Under the pieces are notes generated by a model. The model was not told the origin of the DNA, did no database searches, and was given only the letters and a program-made list of their open reading frames with translations. Shown here in pieces: positions 34,589 through 37,210 of a DNA stretch of 64,000 bases. The DNA comes from Felis catus (Eukaryota). Positions within the stretch are counted from its first letter, which is position 1, and each line of letters opens with the position of its first letter. The stretch spans positions 82,770,001 through 82,834,000 of the forward strand of contig NC_058385.1 of the NCBI RefSeq assembly GCF_018350175.1. Reading direction: 5' to 3'. The position numbers were made by a program, and so were the translations under genes.

Positions 34589-37210
34589 CTACCTGGAGGC
34601 GCCTACCCCCAGGCTGGCTGTCCTCGCGCTCCAGAGCCCCAGCTGGGCAGAGCCTGCACCTCTTGGGTCGGCCTCTGCGGCCCAGGCGGAGGCCCGGAAG
34701 CAGTGCCGGGGGCGCCGCCTCGGAGGCTCCGAGTCTCTGCCGGGCTCCGAGTGCTCAAGCTTAGCTGGCTTCTCCGCAACTGACAGCAGTGGGGGATCAG
34801 GAGGGGCGCCGAGGGGCCAGCCACCTGCCCACACCCCCTTCCCAGGGCCCCCACCCTACCTGGCGGCATCCTGAGCGTGGTGCCAGAGAGCGCGTGCGTG
34901 GCGGGCAGCATCCAGCAGTGCGCGGCCAGCTGCTGCAGGCCCAGGCGCGCACACGGGCGAAGCTGCAGCAGGCCCCGGATCAGGTCCCGGCACTCTGTGG
35001 GTGAGGGCTCACAGCTGTGGCCTCCCACTGCCCACTCTCTTCCCCCCCAGCTGCGTCCATCACCATCAACCACGCTGGCAGCGTAGAGGAGTCAGCCCAT
35101 TCGGACCCCCCAAATGCCCGGAGGGAGTCAGTGCTTCACCATCGTGAGATCAGGGCACGGAGAGGGAGGGCAGCGTGCCCTGGGCTGGTGCAGAGCTCGG
35201 TGGGGCCGCTGCCTTTCCAGGCAAGGAGTCTGAATCGGGGCGTCCCCTAGCCCAGCTTCCCTGTCCCCTGGTTGCTGTGGTCCATTTACCAGCCTGGGTT
35301 GGGGGTGGGGTGCCAGGTCAGTCTCCCATGCCACTCCCTCCACGCAGCATGACCCTTCTCTGGACCCAGGTCTCTCTTGCCTACTTTCCAGGCCCGTGCT
35401 GGGGCTCGGGAGGGACACAGGGTGTCCTCATTCACCTGGGGACATGCCCAGCCTGAAGATGGGGCCATGGTGCATCAGGTGCAGCATGCGGTGGGTCTGG
35501 TGCTCCTTGAAGGGCAGCTTCCCGGTCACCATGGCATAAAGGATGATGCCCCTGGGGGCACAGGCTCCTCAGGGCGTGCCCCCTCCCCTGCCCTCCCGCG
35601 GGTCCTGCCTACGATGGGGTGCCTGCGGGCGCCACTCACAGGCTCCACAGGTCAGCCTGCTCCCCATTGTACTTGCTCATGAGGATCTCCGGGGCTGTAT
35701 AGGCCACGGAGCCACAGAAGGTGCTCGGCAGCGAGCTCTTGAGGCCCCAATGGCTGGCGAAGCCAAAGTCTTTGCAGTGGGGAAGGGGTGGGGTGGGGTG
35801 GGGGTTGGGCACAGGGCAGGCAGTCCCCCAGGTGAGGAGCAGGAGGGCGAGAGAGCGAGGGCTCGGGCGGGATGACTGGGGGGCAGACGTGGCGTGTGTA
35901 GGTTTCTGCAAGTGCAGCTGTGGGCAGGGGTGGGGCTGGGCCTCCTGGGAGGGTGGAGGGTCCAGCTGGGTCACGAGTCAGGATAATCTAGGGAAGAGGG
36001 TAGGGGCTGGGCCAAAGGCTCACAGGTCAGCTTTAGGAGGCCTCGGTCATCTAGGAGGGTATTCTCGCACTTTAGATCCCTGCATGGGGAAGGGGAAGAG
36101 GTGCTGGTCCTGGGCTCAGATGGGTGGCCTCTTGATGCGGGTGTGGGAGCAGGCTGCGAGGGCGGCAGCGCCCTCACCGATGCACAATGCCGGAGCTGCG
36201 GCAGTGGGCCACGGCACTGACGAGCTGCCAGAACAGTCTGCGGGCCTCCTCCTCATCCAGCCCCGGGCTGCAGCGGCGTTCCGACACCCAGTTGATGTGT
36301 TCCAACAGGTCGCCGCGGGCTGCCAGCTCCAGCACCAAGTAGGAGCGCTGGCTGTTCTGGTAGGTCTCGTACAGCTGCACCTGCCGGGCCCCCACCCACC
36401 TGCTGTCACCCAAGGAGGGGCTGTCCGGTGCATTGGATCAGGGTCTCGGGATGGGGCTGAGCCCCAAGCAGAGGGGTCCTGGGTGGAAGAGGGGTTGGGC
36501 CTGGGCAGCTGGAATGGTGACGGCTGGCAGCGGGGGATGGGCAGGACGGGCACAGGCTGGGTCGGGGCCTCTGCCTACCACATTCAGGTGCTTATAGGTA
36601 GCATTGAGTGATGATATTTCACGAGGCAGGAACTTTTGGGAAAACTCCACAGGGGCCTCGGCAGTGGAGATGATCTTGATAGCCACCCGCAGGGGTGGGG
36701 GGTGGCCGTTGTGTGTAGACCACAGCCCCTGGAGGGGGACACGGACAGGCCCCATGTCCTTTGTGCACATTGCCAAGCTTGGCTGGGGTGAGGTTGGGAA
36801 GCAGCACCCTCGGGGGGCAGTGTTGGCCTTCCCCTTCTTTCCTGGCACTGATGTGCTCAAGGGGTTCTGGAACTGGGAGTAGCCAGCTTGCAGGAGCCTT
36901 GGCCTCCAGAGAGGATGCCAGATCAGCAGGAAGGTGCCTCAGCGGGGTTAGGACAGGGCCCACTGGGGCTGGGCTAGAGGGCGGTGGCCGAGCCTGCTGC
37001 CCACCTCACCATGGCATGGTGCTTGCCCCGCGGGTCGGAGGCCAGCTTGGCGTGCTGCATGCGCTCACATGTGGCACAGGCCAGGTAGACTTTGGAGAAG
37101 GCCCCAGAGCCAATCTTCCTGGAAGAGAGCAGGTAGCCATTGTCCCTGCATTCACGCACCTGCTCCATGAAGTTTCGCTGGCCCAGCTTTCGCCTGGCAC
37201 TGCCCTTCAC
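34589..37210 (-). pseudogene. TSSK5: Testis-specific serine kinase 5 ortholog; frame intact but with inactivating lesions (pseudogene or pseudokinase)
   Basis: Exons 37210-37010, 36686-36579, 36380-36178, 36079-36024, 35769-35640, 35551-35436, 34994-34860 and 34779-34589. Kinase motifs: IGSGAFSKV, VAIK, KFLPRE, HRDLKCEN and STFCGSVAYTAPE. Lesions: GTG at the ancestral start, GG acceptor at 36688-36687, and DFG splicing to YFG. Confidence 0.85.

Follow-up and report, generated by a model that had tools for sequence, protein, structure and literature searches.

Cat TSSK5 is probably a unitary pseudogene in early decay, with tyrosine in place of the DFG aspartate

The TSSK5 gene of the domestic cat raises the question of whether a kinase gene with an open frame and a lost catalytic aspartate is on its way out or has become a pseudokinase. 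The initial annotation of the 64,000-nucleotide stretch of Felis catus DNA analyzed here (the window) read the DFG motif as YFG across a splice junction and left two explanations standing, a recent independent loss in felids or conversion into a translated testis pseudokinase. We propose that cat TSSK5 is a unitary pseudogene at an early stage of decay, with a probability of about 0.8. Constraint would have been lost near the base of the living cats, with lineage-specific lesions following, and the Asp-to-Tyr change would have arisen late on the cat line.

The gene has eight exons on the minus strand, from position 37210 to 34589 of the window (Table 1). Its closest named relatives are TSSK5 proteins, with which it shares a long insert between the Gly loop and the VAIK motif. 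Exon 3 gives a 99% match to Felis catus TSSK5-like proteins in a protein search, and the kinase domain is about 88% identical to that of dingo TSSK5 (34 differences in 274 positions). Upstream of TSSK5, on the plus strand, lie MAF1, a WD40 gene, and a DUF383/DUF384 gene, as identified by Pfam matches (Maf1, WD40, DUF383/384) at 18.9–33.4 kb in 4 of the 84 open reading frames scanned. We take the WD40 gene to be WDR97 and the DUF383/DUF384 gene to be HGH1; MAF1, WDR97, and HGH1 followed by TSSK5 on the opposite strand is presumably the mammalian gene order.

DNA and protein searches of the cat genome, in which the best candidates were scored, returned this single TSSK5 locus, and there is no second functional copy among those candidates. 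The genes that we take to be TSSK1-, TSSK2-, TSSK3-, and TSSK6-like keep HRD, DFG, and an APE-type motif, and these intact paralogues may cover the role of TSSK5 in the cat. No extra compensating TSSK copy was seen among the top own-genome matches, for which 8 of 12 loci were translated, TSSK4 being left out.

Table 1. Features of the cat TSSK5 gene, in window coordinates
Feature	Position	Strand	Remarks
Exon 1	37010..37210	-	From the orthologous start (GTG); L61P (dog numbering) and a one-codon deletion near 37052
Lost intron-1 acceptor	36687..36688	-	AG replaced by GG, immediately ahead of the VAIK codons; unchanged in covering runs
Cryptic-acceptor extension	36687..36728	-	42 nt, in frame; pyrimidine tract and CAG; 14 residues before VAIK
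Exon 2	36579..36686	-	VAIK and alpha-C region
Exon 3	36178..36380	-	Ends in HR of HRD; E146D and H165R at panel-invariant columns
Exon 4	36024..36079	-	Catalytic loop; I179T (ENTLL), codon 36060-36058
Last base of exon 4, T	36024	-	Opens the Tyr codon; -1 position of the intron-4 donor
Exon 5	35640..35769	-	YFG; activation segment with L205P; APE; one-Lys deletion (MSK-Y)
Exon 6	35436..35551	-	P254T, common to cat, lynx, lion, and tiger
Exon 7	34860..34994	-	In frame in cat; site of the putative Pantherinae 5-nt duplication, ~34987-34976
Exon 8	34589..34779	-	To the stop codon, as in RefSeq cat isoform X2

The annotated change of DFG to YFG is borne out by the junction itself. Exon 4 (36079–36024) ends in T before the donor gtgagc, and exon 5 (35769–35640) opens with AC TTT GGC. 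With the exons joined by coordinates, the junction codon is TAC (Tyr), and the spliced peptide reads LKLTYFGFAS. The tyrosine aligns with the DFG aspartate of MARK4 (8xfl) in HMMER. Among 134 TSSK5-like proteins, the first position of the motif is D in 118, Y only in cat, and G only in lynx, with no match to the motif pattern in the other 14. RefSeq isoform X3 of Felis catus and the UniRef cat model already contain YFG. The catalytic loop, for its part, reads HRDLKCENTLL, so that ENTLL indeed stands in place of ENILL.

The unspliced frame does show the misleading DFG, at 35770, that had been pointed out. An assembly error or a mis-called junction, with a true transcript encoding DFG, might therefore be suspected, the more so as an in-frame GC site at 36042 would restore the aspartate while deleting six residues. 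However, base 36024 (A on the plus strand) is the same in all four contig sets of genomic size, which come from four studies, show no difference from the window across 3.1 kb, and may in part derive from the source animal itself. It is likewise unchanged in runs X16 and X17, so that all six covering runs agree; X19 and X24 have no coverage there, and 8 of the 24 listed cat runs were examined. Run X17 represents a different haplotype, with three SNVs and one 3-nt insertion relative to the window, yet it has the window's bases at the start codon, in the intron-1 acceptor, and at 36024. Near intron 4 there is no GT donor and no AG acceptor that would restore the aspartate in frame, and a transcript retaining the intron would run into a stop in the frame of exon 4. 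An error of assembly at this base is excluded by the agreement of the runs, and an artifact of either kind, largely refuted by these two lines of evidence, is extremely improbable.

The contigs of X16, X17, and X19 continue through the introns without splice joints and are DNA-like. In run X24, of unknown tissue, there were no splice joints in the five reads placed from the roughly 2/100 of the run sampled. Run X17 carries two coding variants that clouded leopard also has, Val for Leu at 34929 and the 3-nt insertion at 34660. In run X19, one contig of depth 4 has Arg for Leu at 34982, which may be an error.

Joining the exons confirms that exons 1–8 contain no stop or frameshift. The claim that the Gly loop, VAIK, HRD, and APE persist holds at the DNA level, but the splice acceptor before VAIK is lost (GG), and inclusion of VAIK in the product depends on the cryptic acceptor. 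The active-kinase features kept are the Gly loop, the VAIK Lys, the HRD Asp, the catalytic Lys and Asn, and APE, and the Pfam Pkinase score is 187 bits versus 205 for dingo. The DFG aspartate binds the Mg ion needed for phosphotransfer. Its loss, taken with this established kinase chemistry, supports the earlier prediction of a dead kinase, and any full-length cat TSSK5 product is predicted to be inactive.

Lesions are also found at the beginning of the gene. The orthologous start codon is GTG at 37210, unchanged in the covering runs, and the next in-frame ATG, at 37168 (MEQVRE), lies 14 codons on, still ahead of the Gly loop GSGAFS and the kinase domain. Valine occupies the orthologous start in the models of all five felid species that cover it; methionine occupies it in the two hyenas, dingo, stoat, and ass checked. 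The GTG start lies within the span of a short out-of-frame ATG frame (window 37229–37209) that runs for six codons before TGA. All three RefSeq cat models use the cryptic acceptor 42 nt upstream of the lost one, which adds 14 residues, and the UniRef cat and lynx models bypass the intron-1 acceptor and lose VAIK. Farther along, the cat protein carries P254T, L61P, E146D, and H165R, all at columns invariant in the orthologue panel described below, and additionally I179T, L205P, and two one-codon deletions.

The T at 36024 likely weakens the exon-4 donor as well: the computed duplex of this donor with U1 is −4.4 kcal/mol with T versus −8.3 kcal/mol with G, and by the same computation the donor is the weakest of the seven in TSSK5. 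Exons 4 and 5 together measure 186 nt, so that the frame is kept if both are skipped. Two of the three RefSeq cat models, isoforms X1 and X2, skip both, and the catalytic Asp, DFG, and APE are gone as a consequence; such a product cannot act as a kinase. Weakening of the donor fits this skipping, and we infer that base 36024 may be its cause in these predicted models.

The evidence from other species consists entirely of predicted proteins rather than DNA. A pattern scan of metagenomes for TSSK5 DNA of felids or other mammals gave 0 matches, and a profile scan of metagenomes gave 77 loci, none of them mammalian TSSK5 by identity (best segment ≤58%). The tyrosine is not common to felids, as lion and tiger keep DFG and lynx has GFG (D191G). 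The change to Tyr would thus be a late hit and not the loss event, because lion and tiger retain the aspartate and lynx has glycine. Lion and tiger have lesions of their own, namely K175E (HRDLK to HRDLE), Y214C, E218D (APE to APD), and L239R. The lynx model changes frame near 36266, and TSSK5 of the Iriomote cat is annotated in two pieces. In tiger, snow leopard, jaguar, and clouded leopard, the models read the beginning of exon 7 in another frame and then return to the kinase frame. When the snow leopard and clouded leopard peptides are modeled on the cat sequence, a 5-nt duplication is the only single indel of 1–8 nt that fits. The predicted models therefore imply a putative 5-nt frameshift in exon 7 of the four pantherine species. 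The two fitted duplications lie one base apart, which a single event with an additional substitution, or else two separate events, would account for. The lion model does not reach exon 7. The RefSeq models of snow leopard, jaguar, and clouded leopard start within intron 6 (window 35285–35142) and are joined from there to exon 7, which points to an exon in the intron or to an internal transcript.

As to the marks of a unitary pseudogene, the cat gene has disabling lesions in a splice site, the start codon, and a catalytic residue. Its frame is open, and a stop or frameshift appears to be present in lynx and Pantherinae.

The extent of remaining constraint was estimated in two ways. In the first, intron and flanking DNA that some felid gene models happen to translate served as the neutral control, with segment ends trimmed, which lowered the counts in both classes. 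Residues of in-frame exons differ at 19/260 positions between cat and lion and at 24/299 between cat and tiger, compared with 14/169 non-coding codons. The exon/non-coding ratios are 0.88 for lion and 0.97 for tiger (Fisher p 0.71 and 1.0), with wide 95% intervals (0.45–1.71 and 0.52–1.82, respectively) that are also compatible with partial constraint. For cat and lynx, the exon differences are 21/235 versus 4/89 in non-coding codons (p 0.25). Exon divergence between cat and Panthera thus appears to be at the non-coding level, within these wide intervals.

In the second, differences were placed on the 139 of 276 kinase columns that are invariant in 33 non-carnivore TSSK5 orthologues. This panel was hand-picked from complete-looking models, and visibly broken ones, for example those of hamster, mole rat, whales, flying fox, and New World monkeys, were excluded; in the pairwise counts, a mask covered modeled or frame-shifted stretches of lynx, lion, polar bear, and panda. 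Felid pairs place 39–50% of their differences on invariant columns (cat–lion 10/22, cat–tiger 11/26, cat–lynx 9/23, lynx–tiger 17/34), the share expected by chance being ~0.5; these pairwise paths pool the cat branch with branches already frameshifted, and the figures refer to felid pairs and not to the cat branch alone. The corresponding counts in other carnivores are 2/27 for dingo–stoat, 2/18 for dingo–otter, 0/15 for stoat–otter, 0/7 for stoat–mink, 5/21 for stoat–badger, and 0/3 for dingo–fox. Over six contrasts, Fisher p values for the felid pairs are 0.003–0.014 against dingo–stoat and 0.035–0.075 against dingo–otter. Dingo and raccoon dog, conversely, place 6 of 11 differences on invariant columns, which runs counter to this contrast. 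The cat itself departs from the panel at five invariant columns, versus a leave-one-out median of 1 (range 0–4) within the panel, and lies below badger (6), walrus (6), and raccoon dog (7).

These data bear on the possibility that the Felis gene is a pseudokinase under selection. Its frame would have been kept open by use of the downstream ATG and the cryptic acceptor and by skipping of exons 4 and 5, and its kinase-dead or core-less product would act as a non-catalytic scaffold in spermatids, a newborn pseudokinase arising from one base that hits both the DFG aspartate and splicing. The open frame over eight exons, the retained Gly loop, VAIK codons, HRD, and APE, and a kinase score that indicates a degenerate motif within a retained fold are all consistent with such a protein; every cat lesion preserves the frame, and RefSeq lists the gene as protein-coding. 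However, the amount and the placement of the changes look neutral, and L61P, H165R, L205P, and the loss of a splice site are unlike what a conserved scaffold would show. The catalytic core is absent from two of the three RefSeq models, sister lineages carry frameshifts, and neither purifying selection nor a degenerate state conserved among relatives was found. STRAD, ILK, and TRIB are selected pseudokinases without the DFG aspartate, in which a kinase fold is combined with a degenerate Mg-binding motif and one degenerate state is held by purifying selection across species. In felid TSSK5, by contrast, each lineage has a different lesion, some with frameshifts. Of the two explanations initially offered, loss of the gene in felids is therefore supported, and a selected pseudokinase is disfavored by the non-coding-level divergence and the differing lesions of other felids; we consider it improbable.

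Decay of the gene could also have taken place several times within Felidae, separately in the Pantherinae, lynx, leopard-cat, and Felis lines, so that the cat gene would have been functional until recently and the Asp-to-Tyr change would be the inactivating event. No frameshift, stop, or catalytic lesion is common to all felids examined, and the GTG start and P254T could be tolerated. On a fixed tree, moreover, the terminal branch of the cat is short (0.024) compared with that of lynx (0.092). Against separate losses, changes at invariant sites are shared as a mosaic (L61P and L205P by cat and lynx, H165R by cat and Iriomote cat, K100R and Y118S by lynx and Iriomote cat), a pattern to be expected had constraint already slackened in the felinae ancestor, and protein change is elevated on both subfamily stems (0.020 and 0.046). 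We regard separate losses as unlikely, to about the same degree as the selected pseudokinase. In the same tree the felid stem measures 0.016, which is short next to 0.046 for the Panthera stem and ~0.044 for the distance between the felid root and cat. The felid stem is the longer in duration. Because it is short in protein change despite this, the branch lengths and the living species tentatively suggest that relaxation began near the felid crown radiation, separately from hyenas and meerkat.

Under the preferred reading, unitary gene decay, selection on TSSK5 probably lapsed near the origin of the living cats, and each felid lineage would then have gathered its own lesions. In the cat, G-to-T at 36024 would have been a double hit, removing the Mg-binding aspartate, and with it phosphotransfer, and weakening the exon-4 donor. 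The weakened donor would favor in-frame skipping of exons 4 and 5 and thereby deletion of the whole catalytic core. The product of any cat transcript would be a dead kinase carrying the 14-residue insert or else a fragment that lacks the catalytic core, with no detectable selection acting on either. That the cat frame is still open is probably due to the shortness of the gene, the recency of the loss, and the in-frame escape routes provided by the downstream ATG and the cryptic acceptor.

Compared with its mammalian orthologues, cat TSSK5 is alike in its TSSK5-like best matches, its kinase-domain identity to dingo, and its neighbors; it differs in lacking the DFG aspartate, the orthologous ATG, and the intron-1 AG, and felid divergence looks unconstrained. 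The initial annotation took mouse TSSK5 to be intact, and its sequence does keep every motif, with one private departure at an otherwise invariant column. Li et al. 2011 is reportedly the source for inactivity of the mouse protein. Two reviews, as far as their excerpts go, call it possibly inactive or non-functional (PMC7401350, PMC12024862), so that intactness stands for the sequence and is in doubt for function. Human TSSK5P, in the excerpts of PMC2864566 and PMC7401350, resembles the cat case in that the gene affected is the same, is single-copy, and has no replacement at the locus. It differs in having a premature stop after 101 codons, whereas the cat frame is open with missense and splice lesions. 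Since dog, horse, and mouse are intact, the cat loss is likely independent of the primate one. The public cat models (XP_006943518.1, XP_044905454.1, XP_044905455.1, and UniRef A0ABI7VT69) derive from the same locus; they are named TSSK5-like or serine/threonine kinases, and the names seen carry no flag for loss of catalysis. No report of felid TSSK5 loss was found among titles and abstract openings; supplements of large gene-loss screens, outside that scope, may list it. Literature on knockouts and on pseudokinases, viewed at the same level, showed nothing about TSSK5. Primate loss and the presence of YFG in public cat models were already known, and the likely independent loss in cats is, as far as those titles and abstract openings show, new here.

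Cats would add a likely independent case to the known primate loss of TSSK5, and as decay is also hinted at for hyenas, meerkat, bears, seals, whales, and New World monkeys, TSSK5 becomes a candidate for a repeatedly lost sperm kinase. Repeated loss would weaken the idea, put forward in the excerpted text of PMC7401350, that primate-specific TSSK1B was needed as a replacement for TSSK5. Species without TSSK5 could serve as natural knockouts to be tested against sperm traits, and database entries that list cat TSSK5 as an ordinary kinase can be flagged. That one base affects both DFG and a splice donor is a neat detail of local interest.

Several other carnivores have altered TSSK5 models. Spotted hyena, striped hyena, and meerkat show 13, 19, and 9 departures at invariant columns, striped hyena has LRD in place of HRD, and the two hyenas place 12 of their 27 differences on invariant columns. 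On these predicted proteins, decay in hyenas and meerkat is likely separate from that in cat. Polar bear and panda show 14 and 8 departures at invariant columns. In walrus, HRD has become HWD, and the model reads PPPLR before VAIK, as if the intron-1 AG had been lost there too; the seal models are truncated.

Outside carnivores, cetacean models are degraded or without the catalytic exons, with 20 departures at invariant columns in vaquita, and those of blind mole rat, Chinese hamster, and black flying fox look disrupted. TSSK5 proteins of New World monkeys (capuchin, titi, tamarin) bear on the age of the primate loss, which may be older. An amniote origin of TSSK5 is stated in the excerpted part of PMC7401350. 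Gar, salmonids, coelacanth, axolotl, and skate also have proteins that bear the name TSSK5-like; if this assignment by name is taken at face value, TSSK5 would be older than the amniote origin given there.
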